DNA of 32,000 nucleotides, taken from Candidatus Saccharimonas sp. (lineage in GTDB: Bacteria; Patescibacteriota; Saccharimonadia; Saccharimonadales; Saccharimonadaceae). The DNA is taken from contig CP076101.2 of the NCBI GenBank assembly GCA_015256915.3, positions 450,001 through 482,000 on the forward strand. The letters run 5' to 3'. A program made the position numbers and the translations under genes. Positions 1-32,000 of the stretch are shown one piece after another (position 1 is the first letter of the stretch; each line of letters starts with the position of its first letter). A model generated the notes under the pieces. That model was not told where the DNA came from and made no database searches. It was given only the letters and a program-made list of their open reading frames with translations.

Positions 1-3000
1 AAATGGCATTCGAATTGCAGATTTCTCAACCTCGCCGAGAACCAAAATTATCTCACTCATACCTGGGAATTTTCCACAGATCTTCTTTACTGAAAGCAAT
101 GATTCATGATCACTTGGATTTTTAATATGTACGAAGACTCTTTGTATTTTTTCAGCTTGATAGTTTTCTGCTGATCTCGACGGATTTGATGTCGACTTTT
201 CTGAAGATCTATTCAAAACCGCACTGCTATTATTTTTAGGAGTAAATGCTTTTTTCTGTATATTTGAAACATTTTGCGAAACTGTTTTCGTTTGAGGAAC
301 TTTTCTCGCCTTTAAGTCATCTGCCCTACGACCAGTAGATTCATAATTTTCCAATTCTTCATCTGTTATTATCGAAACTGTTTCTGCTATAATCTGAGCA
401 TCAGATTTTAAATTACCTTCCCTATCGCGGGCGGAAATTTTTCCTTCAATTTTTAAAACCGCATCAATTTTAAGCTTTTCGCTAATTTCAGAATAAAGAT
501 TCGGGAAGATAATCACCTCTCCTTCAGAAGTTTTGTCTTCCATCTTCACAAACGCCATTTTTGTTCCAGATTTCGTTATAATCGTTCGAATATCAATCAC
601 AATTCCACCAATAGTCGCTTTTTGACCGTCAGTATTCGGTTGAACCTGTGAAAGTGGCTGAGTTTGCTCTTCGAAATATTTAACATATCTGTCGAGTGGA
701 TGCGCTGAGACGTAAAGCCCTAAAAGCTCACGCTCCCAAGTTAGACGCTCCTTGTCGGTGTGTTGTTTCGGCGCGTTGATTAATTCAATTGATGATTCAA
801 CTCGCATATCTTCAGCACCCGCAAAGCCGAATAAATCAGTCTGGCCTGAAAGTGCCTCTTTTTGAGATTTCGAACCATATTCCTGGATTCTTTCAAGATT
901 AAAAAGCAAATCTGAGCGAGTTCCAAATTGGTCAAAAGCCCCAGTCATAATTAATGAATCCCAGGCCTTTTTATTAAATTGGCGGGCGTTAACACGTTTT
1001 GCAAAATCTAAAATTGAAGTAAATTTACCGTCAGCTTTTCGAGCATTCAAAACTGCATCAACTGCACCACTACCAACAGCCTTCACCGCTAAAAGACCAA
1101 AACGAATTTTATTCTCGTGTGGTACAATTGCAAAATCCTTGAATGATTCATTTACATCTGGACCAAGAACCTCAATTCCCATAGAACGGCATTCGGCAAT
1201 CTCAATCGCTAAACGGTCGGTGTCATCAGAGTCGGCTGTCATTAATGCCGCCATGAAAGCATCTGGGTAATGTGCCTTAATATAAGCTGTCCAATAGGCA
1301 ATTAAAGCATAGCACGCCGCATGCGACTTATTGAAACAATAGTTAGCAAATTCCTCCAAATGTTCCCAGAAAGCCTCAACTTTTCCTCGGTCGGCGTTAG
1401 AATGTTTTACTGCTCCTTCAATAAACTCGCCCTTCATTTTCTTCATCAAGTCGATTTTCTTTTTACCCACGGCCTTTCGAAGCGTATCCGCCTGACCACC
1501 AGTAAATCCGCAAACTTCCTTCGAAATCTGCATAAATTGCTCCTGATAAACCAAAATTCCATAAGTATTTTTAAGAGCATTCTCCATATGATCTTCATAG
1601 TAAGTAACTGGCTCTTCACCGTGTTTTCGAGCAATAAATTTTGGAATTTCGCTCATTGGCCCAGGTCGATAAAGTGCAACCATGGCGATAATATCTTCAA
1701 ACTTTGAAGGTTTAAGCTCCCGCAGATATCGCTTCATTCCAGCGGATTCAAGCTGAAAAACACCGGTTGAATCACCACGAGCTAATAATTCATAAGCTTT
1801 TTTATCATCAAGGCCAAGTTTCGAAAGGTCAAGGTCAATACCATATGTTTTTTTGACAATTTTTTGCGCAGTTGAAATAATTGAAAGGTTTTTAAGTCCC
1901 AAAAAGTCCATTTTTAAAAGACCTAAATCTTCAACCTGGCCCATCGGAACTTGAGTTGCCACAACACCTTTTTGTGCCATTTCAAGAGGTAGATATTTCA
2001 CCAAATCGTCTGGCGCGATCACAACGCCACAAGCATGAACACCGTGGTTTCGAATCGTACCTTCAAGCTGCATTGCAAAATCATAAACAGTTTTAGCAGT
2101 TGGATTAGTTTCATATTCATGCTTTAAATCTTGGTCATTTTCGAGCGAAACTCGAAGTGGTATATGGCGGCCTTGGTTTGGATCTGGAACTAATTTAGCC
2201 ATACGATCGGCTTCAGAATAAGGAACCTCCAAAACTCGCGCCACATCTCGCACGGCGTTTTTCGCCATCATTTTACCAAAAGTCGCAATATTCGCCACAC
2301 GATCAATACCATACTTATCAGTACAATATTGAATAACCTCATTTCGACGCGTATCTTGAATGTCAACATCGATGTCTGGCATTGAAATTCGATCAGGATT
2401 TAAAAACCTTTCAAAAAGCAAGTCATATTCAAGCGGATCAAGATCAGTAATATGCAGAGCATAAGCAATAATCGAACCAGCAGCCGAACCTCGCCCTGGC
2501 CCAAAAACAATTCCTTGAGACTTTCCCCAGTTAATAAAATCTTGCACAATCAAGAAATAACCATTATAACCCATTCCATCCAGAACACCAAGCTCCATAT
2601 CAACTCGCTCAATAACTTCTTTCGAAAGTTTCTTACGAATTTCAGGAATCGTCATCTTCTTCACTTCATCAACAGGAATTCCAGCATATCTTTCACCTAA
2701 ACCTTGAAAAACTAACTTATCTAAAAAGCCTTTTTCACTTTCTTCACCTTCTGGAAGTGGAAATTTTGGAATTAAAATCTTACCAAATTCAAACTCAAAA
2801 TTAACTTTTTCTGCAATTTTTTTGGTATTCAAAATGATTTCAGGGTCAACTTTTCCCCATCGCTCGATAATATCTCTCGGGTCAGTGACAAAAAGGTCAA
2901 ATTCTTTTAGACTCATTCGCTTTTCGTCATTTAAGTATGAGCCCGTTCCGACACAAAGAAGGATTTCATGCGCATCTTGATTTTCATGGGTTAAATAGTG

Positions 3001-3690
3001 TGAATCGCAAGTTACAACCATTGGAATATCAAGTTCTTCATGAAGCCTAAATAGACCGTCATTAATTTCTTTTTGAACCTCCCAGTGATTAGGGCATTCT
3101 GGGTGACCATGGTCTTGTAATTCAAGATAAAAATCTTCACCGTAAACCGATTTGTACCAGTTAGCGAGTTCTTTTGCTTTTTCGAAATCTCCAGCCCGAA
3201 TTGATTCTGAAATTTCAGAACCAGCACAGCCACTCAAGCAAATAATGCCTTCTGAATGCTCTGCCATAATATCATGATCTATTCGCGGTTTATAATATTG
3301 ACCCTCAACCCAAGCCTTGGTTGTAAGTGAGCATAAATTCTGCCAACCAATTTGGTTTTTTGCCAACAAGACTAAGTGATAACGCGGTTTATCGTAGGAT
3401 GGATCTCGATCAAAGCGAGTTCGTGCTGCAACATAAGCCTCAATTCCTAAAATAGGCTTAACACCTTTTGAAGTTGCCTCTTTAAAGAATTCGATAGCAC
3501 CAGACATTGTCCCATGGTCAGTTATAGCCACAGCTTCCATTCCACTCGCTTTAACATTGTCAACCAAATCGTCAATTTTAGTTAAGCCATCAAGCAGTGA
3601 GTGATAAGTATGCGTATGTAAATGCACAAAATCACTCGGAACAAGTTCTTCAAAAGTTTTTGTTGTTTTTATTTTCTCCTCCAATTCCAT
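1..3690 (-). CDS. dnaE: DNA polymerase III alpha subunit (DnaE); N-terminal 1230 codons, C-terminus runs off the left window edge
   Basis: Hand translation of the minus strand from ATG at 3690 is uninterrupted down to position 1. It reads MELEEKIKTTKTFEELVPSDFVHLHTHTYHSLLDG (PHP domain), then GPGRGSAAGS, MPDIDVDI, GVFQLESAGM and LYRPGPM. An in-frame TAA lies 4 codons upstream of the ATG. The ORF is absent from the track only because no stop lies inside the window. Confidence 0.93.
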   Translation of the reverse strand, partial: MELEEKIKTTKTFEELVPSDFVHLHTHTYHSLLDGLTKIDDLVDNVKASGMEAVAITDHGTMSGAIEFFKEATSKGVKPILGIEAYVAARTRFDRDPSYDKPRYHLVLLAKNQIGWQNLCSLTTKAWVEGQYYKPRIDHDIMAEHSEGIICLSGCAGSEISESIRAGDFEKAKELANWYKSVYGEDFYLELQDHGHPECPNHWEVQKEINDGLFRLHEELDIPMVVTCDSHYLTHENQDAHEILLCVGTGSYLNDEKRMSLKEFDLFVTDPRDIIERWGKVDPEIILNTKKIAEKVNFEFEFGKILIPKFPLPEGEESEKGFLDKLVFQGLGERYAGIPVDEVKKMTIPEIRKKLSKEVIERVDMELGVLDGMGYNGYFLIVQDFINWGKSQGIVFGPGRGSAAGSIIAYALHITDLDPLEYDLLFERFLNPDRISMPDIDVDIQDTRRNEVIQYCTDKYGIDRVANIATFGKMMAKNAVRDVARVLEVPYSEADRMAKLVPDPNQGRHIPLRVSLENDQDLKHEYETNPTAKTVYDFAMQLEGTIRNHGVHACGVVIAPDDLVKYLPLEMAQKGVVATQVPMGQVEDLGLLKMDFLGLKNLSIISTAQKIVKKTYGIDLDLSKLGLDDKKAYELLARGDSTGVFQLESAGMKRYLRELKPSKFEDIIAMVALYRPGPMSEIPKFIARKHGEEPVTYYEDHMENALKNTYGILVYQEQFMQISKEVCGFTGGQADTLRKAVGKKKIDLMKKMKGEFIEGAVKHSNADRGKVEAFWEHLEEFANYCFNKSHAACYALIAYWTAYIKAHYPDAFMAALMTADSDDTDRLAIEIAECRSMGIEVLGPDVNESFKDFAIVPHENKIRFGLLAVKAVGSGAVDAVLNARKADGKFTSILDFAKRVNARQFNKKAWDSLIMTGAFDQFGTRSDLLFNLERIQEYGSKSQKEALSGQTDLFGFAGAEDMRVESSIELINAPKQHTDKERLTWERELLGLYVSAHPLDRYVKYFEEQTQPLSQVQPNTDGQKATIGGIVIDIRTIITKSGTKMAFVKMEDKTSEGEVIIFPNLYSEISEKLKIDAVLKIEGKISARDREGNLKSDAQIIAETVSIITDEELENYESTGRRADDLKARKVPQTKTVSQNVSNIQKKAFTPKNNSSAVLNRSSEKSTSNPSRSAENYQAEKIQRVFVHIKNPSDHESLLSVKKICGKFPGMSEIILVLGEVEKSAIRMPF

Positions 3691-3698
3691 ATATTTAT

Positions 3699-3728
3699 AT
3701 TATATCATACTCTCAATTATTTTTTCAA
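3699..3728 (-). promoter_or_regulatory. dnaE promoter: TTGAAA-N18-TGaTATAAT, with the -10 ending 8 nt before the ATG
   Basis: Minus strand reads TTGAAAAAATAATTGAGAGTATGATATAATATAAATATATGG. There is no Shine-Dalgarno between the -10 and the start codon. Confidence 0.55.
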
Positions 3729-3770: not shown

Positions 3771-3777
3771 CTTATAA

Positions 3778-3886
3778 TTCGGCACCGTGCTATTTTCCCA
3801 CTTTCGTAGTATGCTCGCCGCTACTGGGCTTAACTTCTGTGTTCGGAATGAGAACAGGTGTTTCCCCAGCGCCATGGGCACCGAAA
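3778..3886 (-). rRNA. rrf: 5S ribosomal RNA (short, about 106-109 nt)
   Basis: Minus strand TCGGTGCCCATGGCGCTGGGGAAACACCTGTTCTCATTCCGAACACAGAAGTTAAGCCCAGTAGCGGCGAGCATACTACGAAAGTGGGAAAATAGCACGGTGCCGA. It has the conserved CCGAAC and AGTTAAGC loop motifs and the ends pair. Boundaries are good to a few nt. Confidence 0.85.
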
Positions 3887-4074
3887 AAAGGTTTTGCGCT
3901 TCAACTCGCCACAAATTCCTAAGCGGTGAGCCAAAACCTCATTTCGATGTCCTTGGTATCATTTGGTAATGCCAAGATTTTAGATTGACTAGCGATTATC
4001 TTTGATAATCACCAAACACTAGTTAAGTCTACCATATTCACGCCAATAATACAAGATTATTTTAATGAATATGG

Positions 4075-7182
<3,108 letters not shown>

Positions 7183-7345
7183 TAACTAGTAATTGGTAAC
7201 AACCAATACTTGCCGTCAATCTTAAATTCTTATCTTCTTTTACATCACCAAATTGTTAAATTTCTCGCTCCCATTTTAAGAGCAAAACCATAAGTTCAAC
7301 TTTCGAAAGATTCGAACTCACTATCCTGATCTTAAACGCTTTACT

Positions 7346-7374
7346 ATTATATATTTTTGAATATTTTTTGTCAA
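7346..7374 (-). promoter_or_regulatory. Perfect sigma70-type consensus promoter (TTGACA-N17-TATAAT) about 165 nt upstream of the 23S 5' end
   Basis: Minus strand TTGACAAAAAATATTCAAAAATATATAATAGTAAAGCGTTTAAG. The sequence after the -10 resembles that of the 16S promoter. Confidence 0.7.
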
Positions 7375-7480
7375 TAGTTTTTTGCAATTTTATTTATTTT
7401 CTATTAAAATGCATTTTCTACTGATTTAATAAATATTCTCTCCTGAGAGGTTCAGGATGAACGTTCGCTAAGTAAATACT

Positions 7481-7509
7481 ATTATATATTATTTTACATT
7501 TGAATGCAA
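7481..7509 (-). promoter_or_regulatory. Second promoter upstream of 23S (TTGCAT-N17-TATAAT)
   Basis: Minus strand CTCTTGCATTCAAATGTAAAATAATATATAATAGTATTT. It lies immediately downstream of the tRNA-Ile terminator. Confidence 0.6.
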
Positions 7510-7526
7510 GAGTTTTTAAAAGTTTT

Positions 7527-7555
7527 ACAAAATAAAAACACTCCCTCTTGGGAGT
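7527..7555 (-). terminator. Intrinsic terminator directly after tRNA-Ile
   Basis: Minus strand ACTCCC-AAGA-GGGAGT followed by GTTTTTATTTTG. Confidence 0.65.
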
Positions 7556-7559
7556 TCTA

Positions 7560-7636
7560 TGGTGGGCGATGAGGGACTTGAACCTCCGACCTCGTCATTA
7601 TCAGTGACGCGCTCTAACCAGCTGAGCTAATCGCCC
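7560..7636 (-). tRNA. tRNA-Ile (anticodon GAU), CCA encoded
   Basis: GGGCGATTAGCTCAGCTGGTTAGAGCGCGTCACTGATAATGACGAGGTCGGAGGTTCAAGTCCCTCATCGCCCACCA. It folds as a cloverleaf with anticodon loop CTGATAA. The T stem GGAGG/CCCTC has one A-C mismatch. Confidence 0.9.
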
Positions 7637-7689
7637 ATATTCGGCTTTTTGCCAAAGAGAACTTTCGAAAAATATTCAAAAGCTTTCTT

Positions 7690-7764
7690 TGGTGGAGATA
7701 CAGGGACTCGAACCCTGGACCCCTGCTTACAAACAGGTGCTCTAGCCAACTGAGCTATATCCCC
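7690..7764 (-). tRNA. tRNA with Ala-type body (G3:U70, A73) but a non-canonical 16-nt anticodon arm containing UGU; CCA encoded
   Basis: GGGGATATAGCTCAGTTGGCTAGAGCACCTGTTTGTAAGCAGGGGTCCAGGGTTCGAGTCCCTGTATCTCCACCA. Acceptor, D and T arms are canonical. The anticodon arm CCTGTTTGTAAGCAGG is one nt short of the usual 17. See findings. Confidence 0.75.
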
Positions 7765-7786
7765 AGATTTTAACGAATACTATAAT

Positions 7787-7815
7787 AGTATATATTATTT
7801 ATTAATAAAATGCAA
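7787..7815 (-). promoter_or_regulatory. Promoter upstream of the tRNA pair (TTGCAT-N17-TATACT)
   Basis: Minus strand CTCTTGCATTTTATTAATAAATAATATATACTATTATAG. It shares the AAAAACTCTTGCAT upstream word with the 7481-7509 promoter. Confidence 0.5.
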
Positions 7816-7828
7816 GAGTTTTTTTCTT

Positions 7829-7863
7829 ATTAATAAAAATAGCCAATCTTTCGAAAGGCTATT
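7829..7863 (-). terminator. Terminator-like hairpin downstream of 16S
   Basis: Minus strand AATAGCC-TTTCGAAAGATT-GGCTATT followed by TTTATTAAT. Confidence 0.5.
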
Positions 7864-7868
7864 TAGTT

Positions 7869-7888
7869 TTAACAATTTAATTGTGCAA
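7869..7888 (-). repeat. 3' arm of the 16S processing stem, perfect 20-nt complement of 9597-9616
   Basis: Plus strand ttaacaatttaattgtgcaa is the exact reverse complement of ttgcacaattaaattgttaa at 9597-9616. The two arms bracket the 16S gene. Confidence 0.8.
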
Positions 7889-8022
7889 TCTATCTCAATC
7901 TGTGGTAAATTTTAGTCTTACCTTTAGAAGGCTAAATTCGAAAGTAAAATTTACAGAAACTTTCGAAAAGACCGACCTAGCTTCAAAGGTTGATTTCTCA
8001 AACCTTTGGCATAACTCTCCCT

Positions 8023-9550
<1,528 letters not shown>

Positions 9551-9596
9551 AAAGAATTATCAAATTGATAATCTATAAAATAGACTGACGATAAAT

Positions 9597-9780: not shown

Positions 9781-10131
9781 TTATTCAAAAAAGCTCAAAC
9801 TACGATATCCGATGAAACTACCATCTTCACCATATGCAGATTCACCAACTATCAATAAATCAGAAATTGTCCGGCCTTCAGCTCTTGCGGTATACGCAAT
9901 CTCAAAATCTACAATATAGAGTATACCAACCTTGAAGGGCGGTAAATCTCTTATTTCAATAGATTCAACCTTTGACATTGGAACCCCTCCAAGTGCTCCA
10001 TTGTCGGAGATCTCAATCTCTATTTTAGGACTATAACATTCTGATACAATTTTTAATATAGTTATATTGTCTTCATCTACAATATTAATTGTATGCTTCG
10101 TAAGATTAAAGATTTCAATATTGGCCATCAT
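9781..10131 (-). CDS. Hypothetical protein, 116 aa
   Basis: ORF-track frame, but the start is moved to the ATGATG preceded by AAGGAGGTCATA (MMANIEIFNLTKHTINIV...). I recognise no family. Confidence 0.6.
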   Translation of the reverse strand: MMANIEIFNLTKHTINIVDEDNITILKIVSECYSPKIEIEISDNGALGGVPMSKVESIEIRDLPPFKVGILYIVDFEIAYTARAEGRTISDLLIVGESAYGEDGSFIGYRSLSFFE

Positions 10132-10232
10132 TATGACCTCCTTTTTTTCCATTTTTGCTTTTCAGCACCGAATCCATAATTTTTTATAGACTCAGCGCCA
10201 AAAAGCAAACTTCAAAAGAGTTTTTTAGCTTT

Positions 10233-10316: not shown

Positions 10317-11828
10317 CTAGAGATTTAACTCTGGGTAAATATCTTTCGTAATTTCTGAGATTTCATACTTCAATTGTGGGAAAGGTACGCCTTCGCGTGC
10401 AGTAACACCTTCGAAAATCCAAAAGACACGCTCTGAATATCCCATTCCACAAGCTGGCGGCATTCCGTATTCTAGCATCTCAACATAATCAATATCAAGC
10501 ATCATCGCTTCATCATCACCGTTATCTCGCATTTTTTGTTGTTCAACAAAACGATTCAGCTGGTCAATTGGATCGTTCAATTCGCTAAATAAATTACACA
10601 ACTCTGAACCCGCAATCACAACTTGTGCTCGCTGCGTCATTTCTGGTGAATCTGGATGAGTCTTTGCGAGTGGTGAAATAAATGTCGGCGTATTAACCAA
10701 CCAAATTGGTCCAACAACATCTTTTCGAATATTTTTCCATAGTTTATCAATTCCACGAGCTTTATTTTCAGTCTGTTCAACCTCTAAATTATTAGCTTTC
10801 AAAGCCGCTTTAACTTCTTCAAGCGAACAATTGTAAGGATTTAGACCATATCGTTTTTCGATAGTTTCAGCATAATCCCATTCCTCCCACTTTTTCGAAA
10901 GGTCAACATCAAAACTACCAAGCTTAAATTGTAAAGTTCCAAAAGTTTGCTCCAGAACATATTTAAACATCTCTTCTTGAAACTTCAAACCATCTCGCCA
11001 ATCCCAGTAAGCCGCATACCATTCCATCGCAATGTGCTCAGGCAAATGTTCATCTGAATAATTTTCATTTCGAAAGCGTGGGCCAAGATCATACACTTTT
11101 TCAAAACCAGCACCAAGCAAACGCTTTAACGGCAACTCATGACTAATTCGAAGATAAAATTGTGCATTATCAAGTGCATCCATATGTGTTACAAATGGAT
11201 TAGCGTCAGCCCCACCAGTTGTATGTTCGAGAACGGGAATATTGATTTCAAAGAAGCCTCTTGCGTTCAAAAAATCGCGTGTTGCTTGCCAAAACTTCGA
11301 ACGGCGCACAAAACGATCACGAACTTCAATATTTACGTTCATATCAACATAACGCCTTCGAAAACGCTCTTCCTTATTCGTAAAACCATCTTGCTCAGTT
11401 GGCATCGGGCGAAGAGATTTAGAAAGAAGCTTTAACTCTTGTGTTTCAACTGAAATTTCACCAGTTTTCGAACGAATCACTCTTCCGTTCGCCTGAACAA
11501 AATCGCCAACATCAAGTAGATTTAGATCTTTCAAACCAATTAGATTCTGATCTTTCGAGGTTTCAGCTATATTTTGAGCCGTGATAAAAAGCTGAATTTT
11601 CCCTGAAAAATCCCGCAGAACAATAAAAGCAAGTTTTCCAAATTTGCGAATTCCAGCAATTCGCCCAGCAATTTTCACTTCTCGGCCTTCCATTTTTTCG
11701 AAATTATTCACAATTTCGCCAGCCATTGCCGTTCGTTCGGTTTTGGCAGGATATGGATTTAGCCCAAGATTTTTAATTTCTTCTAATTTTCTCAATCGCT
11801 CTTCGCGTAATTCTTTCATTGTAGCCAT
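10317..11828 (-). CDS. lysS: Lysine--tRNA ligase, class II
   Basis: Translation has an N-terminal OB anticodon-binding domain and class II catalytic-core motifs (FRNE, GGA, GMGYSER-like). Start set at MATMKEL because the track start lies inside the promoter -10 region. Confidence 0.92.
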   Translation of the reverse strand: MATMKELREERLRKLEEIKNLGLNPYPAKTERTAMAGEIVNNFEKMEGREVKIAGRIAGIRKFGKLAFIVLRDFSGKIQLFITAQNIAETSKDQNLIGLKDLNLLDVGDFVQANGRVIRSKTGEISVETQELKLLSKSLRPMPTEQDGFTNKEERFRRRYVDMNVNIEVRDRFVRRSKFWQATRDFLNARGFFEINIPVLEHTTGGADANPFVTHMDALDNAQFYLRISHELPLKRLLGAGFEKVYDLGPRFRNENYSDEHLPEHIAMEWYAAYWDWRDGLKFQEEMFKYVLEQTFGTLQFKLGSFDVDLSKKWEEWDYAETIEKRYGLNPYNCSLEEVKAALKANNLEVEQTENKARGIDKLWKNIRKDVVGPIWLVNTPTFISPLAKTHPDSPEMTQRAQVVIAGSELCNLFSELNDPIDQLNRFVEQQKMRDNGDDEAMMLDIDYVEMLEYGMPPACGMGYSERVFWIFEGVTAREGVPFPQLKYEISEITKDIYPELNL

Positions 11829-11839
11829 AATTAACTCAT

Positions 11840-11868
11840 ATTTTAGCATATTTTCGATTTTTTTTCAA
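11840..11868 (-). promoter_or_regulatory. lysS promoter (TTGAAA-N17-TGcTAAAAT), with the -10 ending 11 nt before the ATG
   Basis: Minus strand TTGAAAAAAAATCGAAAATATGCTAAAATATGAGTTAATTATGGCT. Confidence 0.55.
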
Positions 11869-11883
11869 TTTTATAAAAAATAC

Positions 11884-11912
11884 TTGACTTTTTTATTTTT
11901 TAGTGATATTAT
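11884..11912 (+). promoter_or_regulatory. Promoter of the 38-aa ORF unit (TTGACT-N17-TGaTATTAT)
   Basis: TTGACTTTTTTATTTTTTAGTGATATTATA. Confidence 0.6.
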
Positions 11913-11953
11913 ATAAAAATCAGTCCACGGACTTAAAAACAGGAGGAATGCCA

Positions 11954-12070
11954 ATGGCAGAAAATGCAGTACATTCATCAACCGGTGGCCGCCCACATCA
12001 ATCTCAGCAAAAAGAATCTTCATCATCCTTGAATAGAGTTCCCCATTGGGACTCAGCTGAAGAGAGATAA
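11954..12070 (+). CDS. Small hydrophilic ORF, 38 aa (MAENAVHSSTGGRPHQSQQKESSSSLNRVPHWDSAEER); could instead be part of a small RNA
   Basis: AGGAGG lies 7 nt upstream of the ATG. The unit has its own promoter and its own terminator. It is below the ORF-track size cutoff. Confidence 0.45.
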   Translation: MAENAVHSSTGGRPHQSQQKESSSSLNRVPHWDSAEER

Positions 12071-12087
12071 GGATCCGCTGCACTTCA

Positions 12088-12117
12088 CCCTCGAAAATTT
12101 TCGAGGGCTTTTTATTT
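12088..12117 (+). terminator. Intrinsic terminator of the small ORF unit
   Basis: CCCTCGAAAATTTTCGAGGG followed by CTTTTTATTT. Confidence 0.8.
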
Positions 12118-12144
12118 GACTTTATTTATTTTTTATGTTATTAT
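12116..12144 (+). promoter_or_regulatory. Promoter of the 87-aa ORF (TTGACT-N17-TGtTATTAT)
   Basis: TTGACTTTATTTATTTTTTATGTTATTATAG. It is near-identical in layout to the 11884-11912 promoter. Confidence 0.6.
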
Positions 12145-12191
12145 AGTGAAATCCCATAGCCGAAAGGCTTAAAATTATTGGAGGTACCTTT

Positions 12192-12455
12192 ATGTTTCTT
12201 AGGCATGATATTGTACAGGTTCTATTTAGTAAAGACCAAAAAGGTAATTCTTGTATAACTATTGCAACAATAAAAAAAGTATTACCAGAACAAAAATGCG
12301 CTATTCTTGAAGGAGTAATATCTTATCGGGGAAAATTTCCGCTTAAAGCTTCAGAGTGTGCGTCCACCGTAGAAGAGGGTGCGAAAATCTCACTCAAGAG
12401 GCTTGTAAGAATTAATAAAAATGATATGCCCCCCATCTTGTCCATTATAGAATAG
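12192..12455 (+). CDS. Hypothetical protein, 87 aa
   Basis: ORF track. GGAGGT lies 7 nt upstream of the ATG. Flanked by its own promoter and a terminator. No family recognised. Confidence 0.55.
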   Translation: MFLRHDIVQVLFSKDQKGNSCITIATIKKVLPEQKCAILEGVISYRGKFPLKASECASTVEEGAKISLKRLVRINKNDMPPILSIIE

Positions 12456-12473
12456 AGTAGCACAAAAATAACT

Positions 12474-12498
12474 AAAAACCCGCATCTTCGCGGGTTTT
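12474..12498. terminator. Bidirectional terminator between convergent genes
   Basis: AAAAACCCGC-ATCTTC-GCGGGTTTTAAAAA. Confidence 0.8.
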
Positions 12499-12506
12499 AA
12501 AAATTA

Positions 12507-14303
12507 TTATTTTCCAAAAATAAGTCGCAAATAATCTTTCATCATTCGAGAGCCAGAGACCACAGGAACATAGCCTTTTAGCTGTTTTCGAATTTGTTTT
12601 TCAAGCAAATAATCATCTTTAAAAATCTGCCCAGCCCGATTCATTTGAAGATACAAAGACTTCAATTCGTCATTATAATTTGCGCCACTAACTTCTAAAC
12701 AAGGTGCCGGCGAAATATCCGCAACACCACCATCAGCCGTTGAAATTAGCATTTTAAGATTTGCTAAATCTTTCATAAACGAAGTTCCGCAAGCTTCTAG
12801 CCCAACAATCGGCACATTTATCGAAACATCTGAACCAACAGCCAAGGCTAAGCCTAATTCTTCATCATAATCTTGAATAAAATGAACTCTTTCACGCAAG
12901 AAATCATCTGATTCAATTTTTGAAAGTACAGAATTTAAAGTAGCTCGCATTTCAGTATCGCCTTGATGAACTTTTCCTGCCAAAATATAATGAGCGTTAT
13001 TTTCTCGCAAAATTCGGCGAAGCTCTTCCATGTTTTCAAAAGGCATCCAAGGGCGTTTATAAGATACGAATCGCCGTTTAAAATCAAAAAGCATCGCATT
13101 TTCAGGGATTTGTACCGCATGGCCATATTGATCTTTTCTATGAGCTAAAATCTGGTTTAGTTTTCTTCGACCAATCTTTCGAAAATCTCGAATATCTTTT
13201 GCACTAATTTTTGCTAAATTTTCTTTATAATTCTCTGTTGGTAAGTCAAATTTATCAAAAATATCTTTATTTCGAAAATCTTCTAAAATCTCAGGCAAAA
13301 CCCAAGTTGGTAAATCAATTCCATTTGTTATAGCTTTAAATTTAATTTTATCACCATTAATATCATGATAATCTGCAACATTTGCGTGAAGCCGCGAAAC
13401 ACCATTTTTTGCTTCAGCGAGTTCGATTGTAAGCGTTGAAAGCTTCAACCTATCATTTCGAAAAAGCCCAAAAATCCAGGTCTTCAAAGCTGAAGATTCG
13501 ATGTTTGGCATTACAATTCGGTTAAATTGGTCAAAAGAAAATTCACTTTCTGCTGCTTGAACTAAAGTGTGATTTGTATAAAGTGTGTGTTTTCGGACAT
13601 AAACAATCGCCTCGTAAAGATTCATTCCATTTCGAACGAGCTCATCAAGCCGAGCAACGGCTGCAAAAATCGTGGCGGTTTCATTTAATTGAATAACTGA
13701 AGGCTTTAACCCAACCATCTTCAGCGCTTTATAGCCACCGAAACCGAGTGAGACTTCTTGATAAAGTCTGTGGTCGCCAGAGCCATCTCCAGCATAAAGC
13801 TCACCAAAATTACTCTCACCCATTGTCAAAAATCGTGTTGAGCCAAGAATTTTTTGAAAAATATTTAGGCGGGCTGGTGGCATATTTTCAGTGTAAATTT
13901 CAACATCATCAAGATATTCAAAGCCGAAATCTCCTGGATTAACCGAAATAAATTCTTCTCTTTGGTCGAGATTATGAATTGATTGATGAAGCTCTCTTCG
14001 GTAAAACGGCGTTACACAAACAAATGGGATTTCAAGCTTTTCAGCCACTCGCCGAGTATCAGCCGCCAAAACACCCAAGCCACCACCACCTTTAATACCG
14101 TTACTTTTGTCGTAAACTTCCATTGTAAAATAAACATAAGGGCGTTCAGGAGATAATTTTTTAGTTAAATTCGCACGCTCAATCGCCTCATAGAATTCAC
14201 TAACATCTTCAATATTTTGGCCGACTCGCCGTCGGTTAATTTTTTCGAAATAATTTTCCACCACTTTTCCTTTTAGATTATTCTTATGTTTATATTTTAT
14301 CAA
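12507..14303 (-). CDS. glgP: Alpha-glucan phosphorylase, GT35 family (short form)
   Basis: VYFTMEV..GGGGLGVLAADT near the N-terminus, and an EACGTSFMK pyridoxal-phosphate lysine motif. The start is uncertain: the track uses a TTG abutting a TTGATA-N17-TAAAAT promoter-like site, and a GTG after AAGGAA 13-14 codons downstream is an alternative. Confidence 0.85.
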   Translation of the reverse strand: MIKYKHKNNLKGKVVENYFEKINRRRVGQNIEDVSEFYEAIERANLTKKLSPERPYVYFTMEVYDKSNGIKGGGGLGVLAADTRRVAEKLEIPFVCVTPFYRRELHQSIHNLDQREEFISVNPGDFGFEYLDDVEIYTENMPPARLNIFQKILGSTRFLTMGESNFGELYAGDGSGDHRLYQEVSLGFGGYKALKMVGLKPSVIQLNETATIFAAVARLDELVRNGMNLYEAIVYVRKHTLYTNHTLVQAAESEFSFDQFNRIVMPNIESSALKTWIFGLFRNDRLKLSTLTIELAEAKNGVSRLHANVADYHDINGDKIKFKAITNGIDLPTWVLPEILEDFRNKDIFDKFDLPTENYKENLAKISAKDIRDFRKIGRRKLNQILAHRKDQYGHAVQIPENAMLFDFKRRFVSYKRPWMPFENMEELRRILRENNAHYILAGKVHQGDTEMRATLNSVLSKIESDDFLRERVHFIQDYDEELGLALAVGSDVSINVPIVGLEACGTSFMKDLANLKMLISTADGGVADISPAPCLEVSGANYNDELKSLYLQMNRAGQIFKDDYLLEKQIRKQLKGYVPVVSGSRMMKDYLRLIFGK

Positions 14304-14326
14304 ATTTTCAAATTTTTATCAAATAA

Positions 14327-14355
14327 TTGACAAAATAAACCAAAAGTGTTATTAT
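14327..14355 (+). promoter_or_regulatory. Promoter of the 94-aa ORF (TTGACA-N17-TGtTATTAT)
   Basis: TTGACAAAATAAACCAAAAGTGTTATTAT. Confidence 0.6.
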
Positions 14356-14385
14356 TTATATATTCTATTTTGGAGGTACATTCTT

Positions 14386-14670: not shown

Positions 14671-14701
14671 TATAAGTCAGCAAACGCTGGCTTTTCTTTT
14701 T

Positions 14702-14740
14702 CGAAAAATAAAATCACCTTTCGAAATGAAAAGTGATTTT
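14702..14740 (-). terminator. rpsP intrinsic terminator
   Basis: Minus strand AAAATCAC, a 15-nt loop containing TTTCGAAA, GTGATTTT, then ATTTTT. Confidence 0.7.
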
Positions 14741-14746
14741 TTAGTT

Positions 14747-15153: not shown

Positions 15154-15169
15154 GGGTTATTTACGATCA

Positions 15170-17043: not shown

Positions 17044-17044
17044 A

Positions 17045-18406: not shown

Positions 18407-18409
18407 AAC

Positions 18410-19126: not shown

Positions 19127-19623
19127 TATAAGTTCTCCTGTCTAATTTTTTTCATCGCAAGCAAAATTAGCTTACCGATATCTTCATATTCAATCTCATC
19201 CAATGCATCAGAAAAACTAAACCATCTAATACCATTCATCCAATCTTCTTTTTGGATCGCATCAGTATTACCAAGTGCTTTAACTAAAAAAACTTGAGTT
19301 GTCATTAAAACAAGCTTATCGATTCGCCTATATCGAAAATTTATTTTGCCAAGCCAGCCAATAATTTTTACATCATGAAGACCCGCTTCTTCCCCAATTT
19401 CACGCTTAGCAGTTTCTTGAGCTGTTTCTCCTTCTTCGATATGACCTTTCGGAATCGTCCAGCGGTCTTTCGAGTCTTGAATCAGCAAAATTTCAACTTC
19501 ATTTTTTTGATTACGACGAAAAATTACGCCACCAGCGGTCGGTTCACGAACAATTTCCTGAATTGAAGATCGGCGTGTTCTATGAAAATATTTTCGAAAA
19601 TGTTCAACCTTCTTGTTCGCCAT
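19126..19623 (-). CDS. Nudix hydrolase
   Basis: Nudix box [23 protein letters not shown]. Start set at ATG (MANKK), preceded by GGAGGA at 5 nt. Confidence 0.85.
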
Positions 19624-20059
19624 TTTGTTCCTCCACAAAAAGCTTATACGCCGTTCCTAATACGCCGTTAATAAACTTACTTGAATTATCGGAACCAAAC
19701 GCTTTAGCAAGCTCAACTGCTTCATTTATAGCCACTTTTGGTGGAACCGTTTCCCGAGAATAAAGCAATTCATAAAGCCCCATTCTTAAAACATTACGGT
19801 CAATTCGCGCAATCTGTGAAATTGGCCATTCTGGTGCCATTGGCTGAAGTTTCGTATCCAGTTCAACCTGTCTTTCAATAATCCCGTTTAATAAATCTTG
19901 AACGAATTGCTTATCTCCAATCGCTTCCTCATATTGCTTCATATTTCGAAAAATAATCTCAGCCAAGTCAACAGTTTTATCTTGCGCCTGAGAGCGAAAT
20001 TCATATTCATAAAGTGTTTGAAGAACAACAATCCTTCCTAAATGTCTATTTGATGCCAT
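19604..20059 (-). CDS. nusB: Transcription antitermination factor NusB
   Basis: [17 protein letters not shown]... and ...[13 protein letters not shown] are typical of NusB. Confidence 0.9.
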
Positions 20060-20131
20060 TTTTACGTAAGGTTCTTTCCTATATTAAAATATTATTATTT
20101 TTTGTCAAATAAAAATTAAAACGCCAGCAAA

Positions 20132-20311
20132 TTAAGCAGCTAGCGTTTTGTTTTCTTCGAGTTGCTTGTTTAGAGCTTTACCAGATTGTTTTTTAGTTGT
20201 GTAAACTTTCACTGGTGATTTTTTATTAACTCGACGAGCTAAATCCAATCGTAAGTGGCTGCGTCGCAAACCAGTCTTTCGAGGACTACTCTGTTTCTTT
20301 GGCTGTGCCAT
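20132..20311 (-). CDS. rpmF: 50S ribosomal protein bL32, 59 aa
   Basis: Hand translation gives MAQPKKQSSPRKTGLRRSHLRLDLARRVNKKSPVKVYTTKKQSGKALNKQLEENKTLAA. AAGGAG Shine-Dalgarno. A hairpin and T-run span the stop codon. The ORF is below the track cutoff. Confidence 0.8.
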   Translation of the reverse strand: MAQPKKQSSPRKTGLRRSHLRLDLARRVNKKSPVKVYTTKKQSGKALNKQLEENKTLAA

Positions 20312-20352
20312 TTAAAGTTTCTCCTTAGGTTTATTATTTTCCTTCAACATCA

Positions 20353-20381
20353 ATTATACCTTAATTTTAAAGATAAAGCAA
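20353..20381 (-). promoter_or_regulatory. rpmF promoter (TTGCTT-N17-TATAAT)
   Basis: Minus strand TTGCTTTATCTTTAAAATTAAGGTATAATTG. Confidence 0.55.
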
Positions 20382-20400
20382 GCTTTTTATGAATCTATTA

Positions 20401-20429
20401 TTGACTTTTTATTGTTTTTATGCTATAAT
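20401..20429 (+). promoter_or_regulatory. Promoter of the 183-aa ORF (TTGACT-N17-TATAAT), with the -10 ending 9 nt before the ATG
   Basis: TTGACTTTTTATTGTTTTTATGCTATAATAAAATCATTATG. Confidence 0.65.
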
Positions 20430-20438
20430 AAAATCATT

Positions 20439-20990
20439 ATGAAAAATTATGAAAACAAAAAAAATCAAATTCAAAATAATGAAATAGTAAAAATTAGTAG
20501 AAAAAAGTTAAAGCAATTTGGCACTTTAGCGATGCTCGCCGGAGCGCTTGGTGGTTGGTTTGGCCACGATACTTATAAAAATTATCAAGAAAACCACCCG
20601 CCAGAGATTTTCCAAAAAAGCCAAACTAAAGGTTTAGACAACTCTGAAATGGATTTTTCAAAATTTAAAAAAATTTCAGATAATGGCGGCGTAATCCATC
20701 TACAAAAAGGAGACGCTATAAGAAGCTCAACTGGCGAATATTACAAAAACCCTGAAAATTACACCCTCAGTGAATCAAACCATTCAGCAATTGGTATTAT
20801 GAATGCAGACAGGGATTTTACTGCTAAGGGCGAGGTTTATCTAGAAGATGGGGATAATCCAAAATTAATTACCAGAATTGAGAATTTTGAAAAAACGTCA
20901 ACTGGCGAAAATACTAAAATTGATATAAATATAGATAAAGACGGTTGGGTTGCAGTTGATGCAAATAGAGAAGACTTTCAGCAAAAATAA
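20439..20990 (+). CDS. Hypothetical membrane-anchored protein, 183 aa
   Basis: ORF-track frame. Start moved to ATG at 20439 because the track's TTG start sits inside the promoter spacer. One TM segment (FGTLAMLAGALGGWFG). Confidence 0.6.
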   Translation: MKNYENKKNQIQNNEIVKISRKKLKQFGTLAMLAGALGGWFGHDTYKNYQENHPPEIFQKSQTKGLDNSEMDFSKFKKISDNGGVIHLQKGDAIRSSTGEYYKNPENYTLSESNHSAIGIMNADRDFTAKGEVYLEDGDNPKLITRIENFEKTSTGENTKIDINIDKDGWVAVDANREDFQQK

Positions 20991-20991
20991 T

Positions 20992-21017
20992 AAAATGGAG
21001 GAATAAACCTCCATTTT
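20992..21017. terminator. Bidirectional terminator between the 183-aa ORF and leuS
   Basis: AAAATGGAGG-AATAAA-CCTCCATTTT. Confidence 0.8.
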
Positions 21018-21018
21018 A

Positions 21019-23460
21019 TTATTTAACTACAAAGTTAATTAATTTATTCGGAATGAAAATTTCTTTCAAAATCTCCTTGTCTTGCAAGAATTTTGAAACG
21101 TTATCTTCTGCTCTTGCAATAGCAAGAATTTCATCCTTTTCAGAGTTTGCCGAAACTTTAATTTTCCCGCGAAGCTTTCCATTAACTTGAACAATAATTT
21201 GAATTTCATCAGTTTTCAAAAGCTCTTCATTCCATTTTGGCCAGCCAGATTTTTCAATAAAGTCATTATTTCCAAGCTGCTGCCAGAGTTCGCTTGAAAT
21301 ATGTGGAGCAAATGGAACAAGCATTTTAAGTAAATCTTCTAAAATAAATTGCCAATCGTTCGAAAAACCTTCAAGTTTCAATTTATAAAGATCATTTACA
21401 AATTCCATCAGAGCAGCAACCGCAGTATTTAGGCTTTCGCGGTGAAAATCTTCAGTAACTTTCTTGATGGTTTTATGCTGGATTTTTTGGACTTCAGCAA
21501 AATTTGAAAGATTTTCAGCAGATTTTTCAGATTCAATAAACTCTTGAACCAAAACCCAAATACGATTCAGAAAACGATAAACTCCAGCTATACCTCGTGA
21601 ATCCCAAGAAGCGTCAACTTCATATGGAGCAATAAACATTTCATAAGTTCGAAGTGAATCTGCACCATATCCTTGGTCAATGACTTCAAGCGGATCAATA
21701 GTATTCCCCTTTGATTTACTCATTTTCGAACCATCTTCCGCATTGATATATCCGTGATAAAGGAGTTTTTTAACTGGTTCAGCAAAATTAGTTAGTCCCA
21801 AATCTCTAAAAACATGAGTCCAAAAACGAATATACAGTAAATGCGCAACCGCGTGGTCGCCACCAACATAATAATCAACCGGCGCCCAGTAATTTACAAG
21901 CTCAGGATCCCAAGCTTGTTTAGAATTTCGAGGGTCAGCATATCGCAAAAGATACCAGCTTGAGCATGCATAACCATCCATCGTATCGGTTTCACGAGTC
22001 ATTTTCTCGCCATTAATTTCAACTGTAATGAATTCTTTACTCTTAGCAAGGGCCGACTTTCCAGAATCATCAGGCTTAAAATCACTCAAAGTCGGAAGCA
22101 TCACAGGCAATTGATCCTCGGGGATTAAATGCTCTTTCCCATCTTTGTCATAAGCAATAGGAATGGGGCAGCCCCAATAACGCTGCCGAGAAATCAACCA
22201 ATCTCGCATTTTATATGTAGTTTTCGAGCGACCAAATCCAGATTCTTCAAGCCAGCCTAAAATCTGTTCGCGAACATCCTCTGATTTTTGACCGTTAAAT
22301 TCACCAGAGTTAACCATAACTCCTTCTCCATGATAGCAAGAATCATCATCCGCCATACTCTCAGGCTTCTCAACAACTTTTATAATATCCAAATCAAATT
22401 TTTTAGCAAATTCAAAATCTCGCTCATCATGAGCAGGAACCGCCATAACAGCCCCTTCACCATAGCCTCCAAGCACATAATCACTCACCCAAATTGGGAT
22501 TTTCTTACCATTCGCTGGATTTATTGCATAACTTCCAGTAAAAATTCCTGTCTTTTCTTTATTTTCTTGGCGCTCAATTTCAGATTTTTTAAGTGATTTT
22601 TTCTTATATTCTTCAAGTTTTTCTCTAGTTAAATCAGTAGAGAGTTTTTCGAGCAATTCATGTTCTGGTGCAATAGTTAAAAATGCCACGCCAAAAATAG
22701 TATCTGGTCGAGTTGTAAAAACTTTAATTTTTTCACCTTTTGCATTTCCGTCAGCAATTTCAAATTCAATCTCAGCACCCTCAGATTTTCCAATCCAATT
22801 TCGCTGCATCGTTTTAATCTTTTCTGGCCAATCTAATTCGTCAATATCAGCCAAAAGTTCGTCAGCATATGCAGTAATTTTAAAGAACCACTGAGTCATT
22901 TGTTTTTTCGAAACTTCTTCACCACAACGCCAGCATCGGCCATTTTCAACCTGCTCATTTGCGAGAACTGTTTTATCATTATCACACCACCACTGATAGC
23001 TTTCTTTACGGTAAGCTAGACCTTTTTTATACATTTCGCGAAAAATCCACTGTGTCCATTTGTAATATTCTGGATTTGAAGTGTTAATTTCTCGCGACCA
23101 ATCGATTGAAATTCCAAGTCGTTTAAACTGTTTTTTAAAATTTTCGATATTAGTTTTTGTGGCTTCTTGTGGAGATATTCCAGTTTTAATTGCATAATTT
23201 TCAGCCGGCAAACCAAAAGTATCCCAACCGATTGGGTTTAAAACATTTTTACCCTGCTGGCGATAAAAACGCGCGATCGAATCAACAATCGTATAGCTCC
23301 TTGCATGGCCTGTGTGAAGCCCTGCTCCACTTGGATACGGAAACATTCCCGAAATATACATTTTCTGTTTCGAAGAATCTGCTTCAACCTCATAAAGCTT
23401 TGATTCATCCCATTTTTTTTGCCACTTTTCTTCAATTTCAATCGGATTATATCTTTTCAT
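21019..23460 (-). CDS. leuS: Leucine--tRNA ligase
   Basis: 813 aa, HTGH (HIGH) and KMSKSKGN motifs, and a CP1 editing domain. Confidence 0.96.
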   Translation of the reverse strand: MKRYNPIEIEEKWQKKWDESKLYEVEADSSKQKMYISGMFPYPSGAGLHTGHARSYTIVDSIARFYRQQGKNVLNPIGWDTFGLPAENYAIKTGISPQEATKTNIENFKKQFKRLGISIDWSREINTSNPEYYKWTQWIFREMYKKGLAYRKESYQWWCDNDKTVLANEQVENGRCWRCGEEVSKKQMTQWFFKITAYADELLADIDELDWPEKIKTMQRNWIGKSEGAEIEFEIADGNAKGEKIKVFTTRPDTIFGVAFLTIAPEHELLEKLSTDLTREKLEEYKKKSLKKSEIERQENKEKTGIFTGSYAINPANGKKIPIWVSDYVLGGYGEGAVMAVPAHDERDFEFAKKFDLDIIKVVEKPESMADDDSCYHGEGVMVNSGEFNGQKSEDVREQILGWLEESGFGRSKTTYKMRDWLISRQRYWGCPIPIAYDKDGKEHLIPEDQLPVMLPTLSDFKPDDSGKSALAKSKEFITVEINGEKMTRETDTMDGYACSSWYLLRYADPRNSKQAWDPELVNYWAPVDYYVGGDHAVAHLLYIRFWTHVFRDLGLTNFAEPVKKLLYHGYINAEDGSKMSKSKGNTIDPLEVIDQGYGADSLRTYEMFIAPYEVDASWDSRGIAGVYRFLNRIWVLVQEFIESEKSAENLSNFAEVQKIQHKTIKKVTEDFHRESLNTAVAALMEFVNDLYKLKLEGFSNDWQFILEDLLKMLVPFAPHISSELWQQLGNNDFIEKSGWPKWNEELLKTDEIQIIVQVNGKLRGKIKVSANSEKDEILAIARAEDNVSKFLQDKEILKEIFIPNKLINFVVK

Positions 23461-31770: not shown

Positions 31771-31807
31771 ATGGTGAATGGTCACCAGAAATTAAAGAAC
31801 TAACGAA

Positions 31808-32000
31808 ATGACATACAAAAGTAACAGATTAATATTGTTTCTGATATTCACTTTCTACATAATTATTCCGTTTTTATTACTAATTAATCCATTATTTTTT
31901 AAAAATAAATTCATAATTTTAACTATCAGCGGAATTTTAATTTATATTCTACTCAGATTATTAGGTTTCAATAACAGCTCCCTCGGCATCAAACCGGCAA
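31808..32000 (+). CDS. Partial membrane protein ORF (N-terminal 64 codons), runs off the right edge
   Basis: MTYKSNRLILFLIFTFYIIIPFLLLINPLFFKNKFIILTISGILIYILLRLLGFNNSSLGIKPA is hydrophobic and open to the window end. Function not assignable. Confidence 0.4.
   Translation, partial: MTYKSNRLILFLIFTFYIIIPFLLLINPLFFKNKFIILTISGILIYILLRLLGFNNSSLGIKPA

Follow-up and report, generated by a model that had tools for sequence, protein, structure and literature searches.

A hyper-abundant TTCGAA-centred palindrome, TTTCGAAA, in one clade of gut Saccharibacteria

Introduction

Why would a single short palindrome be written again and again into the genes and spacers of one bacterial lineage? The question is raised by a 32,000-nt stretch of Candidatus Saccharimonas sp. 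(contig CP076101.2, positions 450,001 to 482,000; referred to as the window throughout), in which the hexamer TTCGAA and the octamer built around it, TTTCGAAA, are extraordinarily common. TTCGAA is the BstBI/AsuII-type restriction site (TT^CGAA). An initial annotation, made from the letters of the window, proposed that the word might act as a DNA uptake signal comparable to the DNA uptake sequence (DUS) of Neisseria or the uptake signal sequence (USS) of Haemophilus, and listed an orphan methyltransferase, a nucleoid protein or regulator and a context-dependent mutation bias as alternatives. The answer that we tentatively favour is a mark of self-DNA akin to cyanobacterial HIP1 (Highly Iterated Palindrome, GCGATCGC).

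Results

Abundance

TTCGAA occurs 83 times in the window, in 40 instances within TTTCGAAA, which corresponds to 2.6 and 1.25 sites per kb; the hand count of the initial annotation (about 81 and about 40) was close to exact. TTTCGAAA is the commonest 8-mer of the window, ahead of every run of A or T, and among words of the form NNCGNN the runner-up to TTCGAA is found 19 times. Base composition alone (order 0) predicts 10.4 hexamers and 1.03 octamers, almost precisely the rough figures of 10 and 1 given previously. Shuffles that preserve dinucleotides yield 20.4±4.7 hexamers (maximum 35) and 3.2±1.7 octamers (maximum 9), and a Markov model of order 3 yields 44±6 and 7.2±2.5. Models of orders 4 and 5 trained on the window reproduce the observed counts: they absorb the signal because the window on which they were trained is saturated with the word.

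Coding DNA holds 72 of the hexamers and 32 of the octamers. Permuting synonymous codons within genes leaves 24.4±4.1 and 8.1±2.5, respectively. A permutation of third positions that keeps the protein, the codon family and the dinucleotides leaves 49.2±4.0 (maximum 61) and 18.5±2.8 (maximum 26); thus shuffles that respect both codons and dinucleotides do not reach the observed counts. All told, nulls that are free of the word miss the observations by 5–12 standard deviations, and an artefact of composition or codon usage is ruled out by the dinucleotide shuffles, by Markov orders 1–3 and by both coding permutations. Nor is the enrichment restricted to the window: the adjoining 9.8 kb of the same genome contain 25 TTCGAA and 12 TTTCGAAA, against 6.3 and 1.1 expected, at unchanged density. 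Where we speak of the word as genome-wide, it is these 42 kb (the window plus the next 9.8 kb) of a genome of ∼0.65 Mb that are meant. The excess of TTCGAA and TTTCGAAA is real and statistically very strong, and the signature described in the initial annotation – a short, orientation-free word at ∼1–2.6 per kb, in every frame and in coding and non-coding DNA alike – stands under strict nulls.

Placement

The density of the hexamer is 3.1 per kb in coding DNA, 2.8 per kb in intergenic DNA and 0.2 per kb in rRNA and tRNA genes, and 19 of the 22 genes of the window carry at least one copy. The RNA genes had been described as nearly free of the word, and indeed a single copy, at 8897 within the 16S gene, is all that their 5,035 bp include, there being six in the spacers of the rRNA operon (7302, 7311, 7664, 7850, 7937 and 7962). 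A site formerly placed at 7321 does not exist, the local sites being those at 7302 and 7311. The clustering in non-coding DNA reported in the same place is likewise not borne out by the densities: it is the full octamer alone that is relatively commoner there. The two hairpins that were said to carry the word are real (Table 1).

Gaps between neighbouring sites are near-exponential and slightly too even, with a coefficient of variation of 0.80 against 0.98±0.09 for random placement (p=0.012; 99 gaps in 41.8 kb, the stretch being listed as positions 9600–32000 of the window plus 11437–21206 of locus L082). Clustering of sites as close pairs is rejected by this slight under-dispersion. Even spacing would fit a density-dependent or saturating process.

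Sequence and codon context

The base preceding the hexamer is T at 58 of the 83 sites (70%) and the base following it is A at 54 of the 83 (65%), as opposed to 40% and 35% when those trinucleotides stand elsewhere. These two outer bases behave independently, and 43 of the 83 sites lack one or both. Beyond ±1 the flanks hold no information, which rejects the idea that the sites are copies of a longer dispersed repeat. Hexamers one substitution away from TTCGAA lie near background (0.2–1.25 times expectation), TTTGAA and TTCAAA among them (1.05 and 0.98) and showing no depletion. The exception is TTCGAG at 2.2 times (18 versus 8.1 expected; the reverse complement CTCGAA, 12 versus 9.6), a strand asymmetry that probably reflects the Glu codon GAG on the dominant coding strand. 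The complete octamer accounts for 8 of the 10 intergenic sites and for 32 of the 72 coding sites (p=0.046). What is targeted, then, is a palindrome of 6 bp that is held strictly and an 8-bp extension that is held loosely, the latter being completed most often in sequence free of coding constraint.

The coding sites are split 23, 24 and 25 among the three codon phases, in agreement with the earlier claim that all phases are used; the codon contexts cited for dnaE (GAT-TTC-GAA, ATT-TCG-AAG and CTT-CGA-AAG) are exact. Each phase exceeds its synonymous null: 25 versus 5.9 where the word encodes Arg (xTT-CGA-Axx), 23 versus 8.7 for Phe-Glu and 24 versus 9.8 for Ser. Between ..TT and A.., 72% of Arg codons are CGA (24–45% elsewhere); between ..T and AA.., 47% of Ser codons are TCG (8–15% elsewhere); and Phe-Glu pairs use TTC in 23 of 50 cases, compared with 20% of Phe codons overall. 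Codon choice thus prefers the complete word to every synonymous alternative. The imprint on proteins is small (observed/expected 1.41 for the dipeptide FE and 1.23 for S[KN]). Equal use of the phases, the intergenic density and the palindromy together exclude a signal at the level of RNA or protein: the excess is a property of the DNA itself.

The same data dispose of a mutation bias under which CpG would survive chiefly within TCGA, one of the alternatives offered by the initial annotation. CpG is not depleted (observed/expected 1.14), 83 of the 1,227 CpGs (7%) lie inside the word, and the excess peaks in the very codon phase in which CpG-creating transitions are non-synonymous.

Relatives

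Loci centred on the gene for leucyl-tRNA synthetase (LeuRS) were drawn from a collection with one genome per species and from metagenomes, and a codon-preserving null was run on each; all cross-genome comparisons were made on the housekeeping block of the window (Table 1). TTCGAA stands at 2.9 times expectation in the window itself (z=11) and at 3.0–3.8 times in three near relatives (L001, L091 and L002; 92–96% nucleotide identity); for near relatives as a whole (92–99% identity) the factor is ∼3. The enrichment is 2.1 times in L092 (∼80% identity), 1.75 times in L003 (∼76%) and 2.0 times in L004 (∼68%), and ∼1 in the more distant L005 and L093. In 12 other, distant Saccharibacteria loci the ratio is 0–0.47. 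The word is thus shared by relatives in a graded manner, and the excess is found in independent assemblies from different studies. No other comparably over-represented 8-mer, which might have constituted a ‘dialect’, was found in 17 Saccharibacteria loci.

The avoiding loci deserve attention in their own right. When six of them that form one group (L006, L007, L012, L013, L096 and L097) are pooled, 4 TTCGAA are seen where ∼40 are expected, each locus having 0–1 against 6–7.5. This is the kind of trace that a cognate restriction enzyme classically leaves, and restriction systems of the BstBI/AsuII type may well be circulating in the phylum; the initial annotation had remarked that an active endonuclease predicts avoidance, and avoidance is what the sister clades display. 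The background state of the phylum with respect to TTCGAA is avoidance, from which one clade has switched to enrichment. Loci L015–L024 also belong to the gut Saccharibacteria that strongly avoid TTCGAA under a null preserving protein and codons.

Gains and losses

In the comparison of the window with L002 (92.5% identity) 30/40 and 30/43 sites are common to both, against 67% for all hexamers, and most of the differences set TTCGAA against TTTGAA or TTCAAA. Such changes are expected by mass action, because these are the commonest one-off words. Where a site is common to the window and L002 alone, L003 and L004 carry many different words, some of them with amino-acid changes. At strain level (99.2–100% identity) one variable site only was seen.

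Among three genomes polarised by majority, synonymous transitions that create the word stood at 8/45 versus 312/8,655 (odds ratio, OR, 5.8) and those that destroy it at 7/66 versus 264/2,511 (OR 1.0). The picture drawn from this trio, accelerated creation with no protection of sites, was softened by a 13-lineage alignment, to which ten further species-group loci were added, and by a CpG-matched background. Parsimony reconstruction on this alignment gave 3,196 definite changes, among which the word was gained 23 times and lost 36 times. Synonymous transitions that create it were elevated 2.4-fold over CpG-type controls (17/492 versus 381/25,513; p=0.002) and 3.4-fold over all controls (p=3e-5). 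For destroying transitions the OR was 0.63 relative to CpG-type controls (19/748 versus 294/7,437; p=0.057) and 0.86, not significant, relative to all controls. At the relevant synonymous positions G+C is 0.60 in the motif context and 0.22 elsewhere, equivalent to a scaled directional bias of ∼1.7, for which a gain of 2.05 times and a loss of 0.39 times would be predicted. With gains above background and losses near it, a weak continuing push toward the word holds ∼2.6 sites per kb while single sites turn over rapidly, nearly at the pace of other synonymous CpGs.

A relic of some past burst does not account for the pattern: gains are continuing, and the excess persists across lineages whose synonymous sites are mutually saturated, so that it is not a decaying remnant. 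Whatever produces it must be inherited within the clade. One lineage of the alignment, L171, has 446 private substitutions (∼2.7%), several times the number in its tree neighbours; this suggests imported segments or a mixed assembly.

The locus

Features of the window are collected in Table 1. Its G+C content is 37.3% (33–36% outside the rRNA operon). The nearest public records are human-gut metagenome-assembled genomes labelled Candidatus Saccharimonas sp. or Saccharibacteria, and one ENA contig is 100% identical across 11.4 kb.

Table 1. Features of the window and start positions of TTCGAA
Feature	Position	Strand	Basis and remarks
dnaE	1-3699	minus	Pfam; 3' end beyond the window; 10 TTCGAA sites in all three codon phases
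rRNA operon (16S-tRNA-tRNA-23S-5S)	3777-9551	minus	Rfam and ARAGORN
5S rRNA	3777-3885	minus	Rfam
23S rRNA	4076-7172	minus	Rfam
tRNA-Ile	7560-7636	minus	Rfam, ARAGORN
Second spacer tRNA	7690-7764	minus	Rfam, 60 bits
16S rRNA	8025-9551	minus	Rfam; holds the lone RNA-gene TTCGAA
Hairpin AATAGCC-AATCTTTCGAAAG-GCTATT	7838-7862		Intergenic; 8-mer (7849-7856) in the loop; read from the sequence
Housekeeping block	9781-31770		62 coding TTCGAA sites; genes: class II aminoacyl-tRNA synthetase, phosphorylase-like, rpsP (S16), RimK/RimB-like/MATCAP cluster, RNase III, NUDIX, NusB, LeuRS, LigA, HtpX, LemA, HisRS, MgsA
Pair of 8-mers, 20 bp apart	14699..14740		Downstream of rpsP (S16)
First 8-mer of the pair	14699-14706		Follows a terminator-like hairpin
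Second 8-mer of the pair	14719-14726		Inside stem-loop 14710-14740
TTCGAA starts (83), part 1	9, 585, 670, 869, 1476, 1520, 1820, 2049, 2621, 3181, 7302, 7311, 7664, 7850, 7937, 7962, 8897, 9766, 10231, 10410, 10724, 10894, 11069, 11147, 11296, 11357, 11467, 11697		
TTCGAA starts, part 2	12587, 13178, 13271, 13457, 13631, 14244, 14700, 14720, 15239, 15519, 15555, 16148, 16742, 16751, 16827, 17339, 17676, 17714, 18067, 18189, 18392, 18436, 18746, 18918, 19061, 19593, 19945		
TTCGAA starts, part 3	21359, 21648, 21725, 22907, 23369, 23782, 24033, 24087, 24462, 24636, 25080, 25408, 25427, 25922, 26688, 26801, 27025, 27375, 28000, 28018, 28306, 28959, 29354, 29505, 29711, 29962, 30240, 30982		

Several features of the rRNA operon and its surroundings stand apart from the word. 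The 23S gene is 3,097 nt long and matches the 2,925-position Rfam model from end to end, leaving ∼170 nt extra, possibly an rRNA insertion of the type common among Candidate Phyla Radiation bacteria. For the second spacer tRNA, ARAGORN returns ‘tRNA-???, anticodon (gt)’ and assigns no anticodon; the anticodon loop looks non-canonical, at a place where tRNA-Ala is usual. Beside the 16S promoter region an open reading frame (ORF) of 123 amino acids (9781–10152, minus strand), itself devoid of TTCGAA, has no match in Pfam or NCBIfam and matches the PADLOC entry Unk_01, ‘unknown small protein, sometimes fused to CARF’ (E=1.7e-10).

Further into the block, the cluster of RimK, RimB-like and MATCAP(QEGLA)-like genes (15607–18406) differs among strains. 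The corresponding region of L181 (15056–17319) has a 448-aa RimK–RimB-like fusion in place of the MATCAP-like gene, and in L180 (15055–16284) that gene is cut down to 409 aa. Across positions 14700–16900 (S16, an unknown ORF and RimK) the window is ∼86% identical to L091 and L002, which are 93% identical to each other there; the flanking blocks are 94–96% identical. This mosaic divergence suggests a recombination import in the lineage of the window. Some other words are mildly under-represented relative to maximal-order Markov expectation (GATC, 69 versus 97; TGATCA, 3 versus 9.4; CTTAAG, 4 versus 10.5; AACGTT, 5 versus 10.9) and may be footprints of other restriction systems.

Discussion

We tentatively favour the view that TTTCGAAA is a self-DNA word in the class of HIP1 and the uptake sequences, read by a TTCGAA methyltransferase and kept by weak drive. 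The duplex of TTTCGAAA/TTCGAA would be recognised by a clade-specific protein with the sharp six-base specificity typical of restriction-modification enzymes, most likely a TTCGAA (BstBI/AsuII-type) DNA methyltransferase with no effective cognate restriction in this clade. A methyltransferase is pointed to because TTCGAA is a BstBI/AsuII-type site, because methylation of the motif TTCGA*A is on record (from the methylome of a hot-spring metagenome) and because sister clades avoid TTCGAA. Bias toward the word could arise from preferential uptake, recombination or repair of DNA bearing (methylated) sites, in which case the word would mark self-DNA in a naturally transformable phylum. An alternative route from recognition to enrichment might be a methylation-directed repair ratchet of the kind envisaged by Elhai, for which no function would be needed. 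Natural transformation by way of comEC has been described in cultivated Saccharibacteria (PMC10633639). In Synechococcus, transformation rises up to ∼100-fold with methylated HIP1, and HIP1 abundance co-varies with DNA-transfer genes. The methyltransferase alternative is at least as well supported as the uptake sequence proposed by the initial annotation, which itself stays viable.

Several points count against this preferred view. The search for a reader protein, in which all ORFs of the window and the next 10 kb were compared with Pfam, NCBIfam and PADLOC, found no methyltransferase, endonuclease or competence gene in these 42 kb, and a scan of all clade loci for methyltransferase motifs gave no match. 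In the literature searched, methylation data from this lineage were absent, and neither TTTCGAAA nor any other word of unusual abundance had been described from Saccharibacteria; on TTCGAA methyltransferases and Saccharibacteria methylomes its sole relevant match was the hot-spring TTCGA*A. Competence genes are phylum-wide and the word belongs to one clade, so competence alone explains nothing. The measured rates (gain 2.4 times, loss 0.63 times) fall between the predictions of repair bias and fixation bias, and the events are few (17 and 19). Finally, the link to a methyltransferase draws on resemblance and on the change of sign in sister clades, not on a gene. A more specific form of the same idea is possible though doubtful: that TTTCGAAA is a self-recognition word for transformation, and that DNA bearing it, probably once methylated by a TTCGAA methyltransferase peculiar to the clade and no longer paired with its restriction enzyme, would be favoured in uptake or recombination. 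Drive would in that case have written the word ∼1,700 times into a genome of ∼0.65 Mb (extrapolated from 2.6 sites per kb).

In one rival explanation bias would be exerted with no methylation at all, by a competence-pilus protein or a receptor of this clade that binds TTTCGAAA on duplex DNA arriving from outside; favoured uptake and subsequent recombination would spread the word by molecular drive, as supposed for DUS and USS. Density (1.25–2.6 per kb), use of all frames and depletion from rRNA match the statistics of those sequences; the word is preferred to every synonymous alternative; gains are up and losses slightly down, as a weak fixation bias would have it (S ∼1–1.7); the dipeptide imprint is as small as that of USS (FE 1.41); the phylum is transformable (PMC10633639), and the mosaic divergence of strains suggests recombination. 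Yet known DUS and USS are 9–12 bp long, non-palindromic and accompanied by many single-mismatch copies, whereas the one-off hexamers here are at background; losses number 19 where pure fixation bias would give ∼8.5–11.5; the restriction-type avoidance of TTCGAA in sister clades points to recognition of the restriction-modification type; and the study of transformation in Saccharibacteria mentions no uptake sequence (PMC10633639). We consider this explanation unlikely. Distinctly unlikely, in our estimation, is a by-product of repair devoid of function, in which a TTCGAA methyltransferase together with methylation-directed or short-patch repair fixes site-completing mutations up to saturation (an Elhai-type ratchet). 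Elhai's model does predict over-representation without selection. Sites are created fast and barely protected (OR 5.8 and 1.0 in the trio; 2.4 and 0.63 times in 13 lineages), turnover is high, with 30/40 window sites common to L002 against 67% for all hexamers, and even spacing fits saturation. No such repair system is known to have been demonstrated anywhere, however; neither the methyltransferase nor a nickase was found in the 42 kb read; the borderline reduction in losses (p=0.057) is not predicted; and an excess that outlasts the saturation of synonymous divergence suits a function equally well.

Weak selection on local density, rather than on single sites, could maintain binding sites for a nucleoid-associated or chromosome-organising protein, a role that Xu et al. 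proposed for HIP1. The palindromic form with its CpG flanked by A/T tracts, the genome-wide coverage, the spacing that is more even than random and the exchangeability of sites are all compatible with such a protein. There is no candidate for it, all-or-none specificity for six bases is rare among nucleoid proteins, and the avoidance of the same word in sister clades is left unexplained, which makes the explanation improbable. More improbable by far is a bias confined to T:G mismatches, through mutation or very-short-patch repair, that converts TTTGAA or TTCAAA to TTCGAA much as Dcm/Vsr acts at CCWGG in E. coli. Most differences between close genomes are indeed of this type and CpG-creating synonymous transitions are elevated in the relevant context. 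As sole cause it is nevertheless contradicted when phases and codon choice are tested: the peak of the excess lies in xTT-CGA-Axx (25 versus 5.9), where the transitions in question turn Gln or a stop into Arg; preference for CGA over AGA, CGT, CGC and CGG, and for TCG over TCT and AGY, needs transversions or several steps; and no depletion of TTTGAA or TTCAAA is seen (1.05 and 0.98). Least credible of all, to the point of near exclusion, is an artefact of composition or codon usage, or the copying of a longer dispersed repeat. Markov models of orders 4 and 5 trained on the window reproduce the counts, but they merely memorise the word, and word-free nulls fail by 5–12 standard deviations; the flanks carry no information beyond ±1, and independent assemblies from different studies carry the excess.

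Hyper-abundant short palindromes are rare. HIP1 is the sole well-studied example, unexplained for 30 years and only now tied to methylation-dependent transformation; TTTCGAAA would be an independent and much younger one, in a phylum of tiny-genome epibionts that has newly become tractable by natural transformation. If it were a by-product of repair, Elhai's ratchet idea would gain its clearest support to date. If it were a self-recognition word, it would be the first uptake or self-DNA signal in the Candidate Phyla Radiation and an independent second origin of a HIP1-type system, and if the word aids uptake or recombination, adding TTTCGAAA to transforming DNA would be a practical tool for engineering Saccharibacteria. 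The relatives form a natural series with the same gene order, from strongly enriched (3 times) through weakly enriched and neutral to avoiding (10 times), along which a comparison of gene content could pinpoint the methyltransferase, receptor or repair gene responsible. The species is present in dozens of gut assemblies, and population data could separate drive from selection.

Among known systems, very-short-patch repair by Dcm/Vsr shapes the abundance of CCWGG in E. coli, an effect that is small and leaves the T:G-derived words depleted. Here too the target word of a (predicted) methyltransferase could be over-represented through biased repair, and turnover is mostly between C and T at the position that would be methylated; the excess, in contrast, is ∼3 times, peaks where such transitions are non-synonymous and is not accompanied by depletion of the T:G-derived words. 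In Campylobacter jejuni a short palindromic methyltransferase site (CtsM/RAATTY) is the self mark that licenses DNA for transformation. An arrangement of this sort would unite the uptake and methyltransferase hypotheses of the initial annotation. Avoidance of Type II restriction sites (BstBI/AsuII) concerns the same six-base word, which sister Saccharibacteria avoid at 0–0.2 times expectation, whereas the clade of the window is reversed to ∼3-fold enrichment, something that an active cognate endonuclease would not allow.

The DUS of Neisseria and the USS of Pasteurellaceae resemble TTTCGAAA in their frequency of about one per kb, in entering genes regardless of frame, in marking the encoded peptides slightly and in being rare in rRNA. 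They also have occasional copies in terminator hairpins, as in the two hairpins found here, and the resemblance extends to a naturally competent host phylum and dynamics compatible with weak drive. Those sequences are 9–12 bp long, non-palindromic and tolerant of mismatches, with abundant one-off copies, whereas the core described here, a palindrome held strictly to 6 bp, coincides with the specificity of a restriction-modification system.

TTTCGAAA appears to belong with HIP1 and with these uptake sequences, and of them HIP1 is, on our comparison, the closest. HIP1 and the alternate HIPs described by Elhai are likewise 8-bp palindromes, the commonest octamers of their genomes at ∼1 per kb, present both in non-coding DNA and, whatever the frame, in coding DNA, and distributed by lineage with exceptions. 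They too have a sharp inner hexamer of the size of a methyltransferase site and softer outer bases (Elhai); one-base deviations from HIP fall mainly on the two end positions of the octamer, and genomes carrying HIP encode a methyltransferase for the inner hexamer (Elhai 2015). The deviations of TTTCGAAA follow the same rule, with 43/83 sites lacking outer bases and one-off hexamers at about background. Quasi-periodic spread along the chromosome, with periods of 10–90 kb, is a further trait of the HIP class; over the 42 kb the short-range spacing of the present word is mildly under-dispersed (coefficient of variation 0.80, p=0.012). The debate is also a familiar one, between a by-product of repair, nucleoid structure and, recently, a methylation-dependent boost to transformation. 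TTTCGAAA differs in being another word, AT-rich and found in Saccharibacteria; in its restriction to one genus-level clade, much narrower and younger than a phylum; and in the size of the octamer excess, 12–39 times as against 15–300 times for HIP1. Its sites show no clear gain in conservation over controls, in contrast to HIP1, whose sites are reported to be conserved (Xu et al. 2018), and where cognate methyltransferases are known for HIP1, that of TTTCGAAA is a predicted one.

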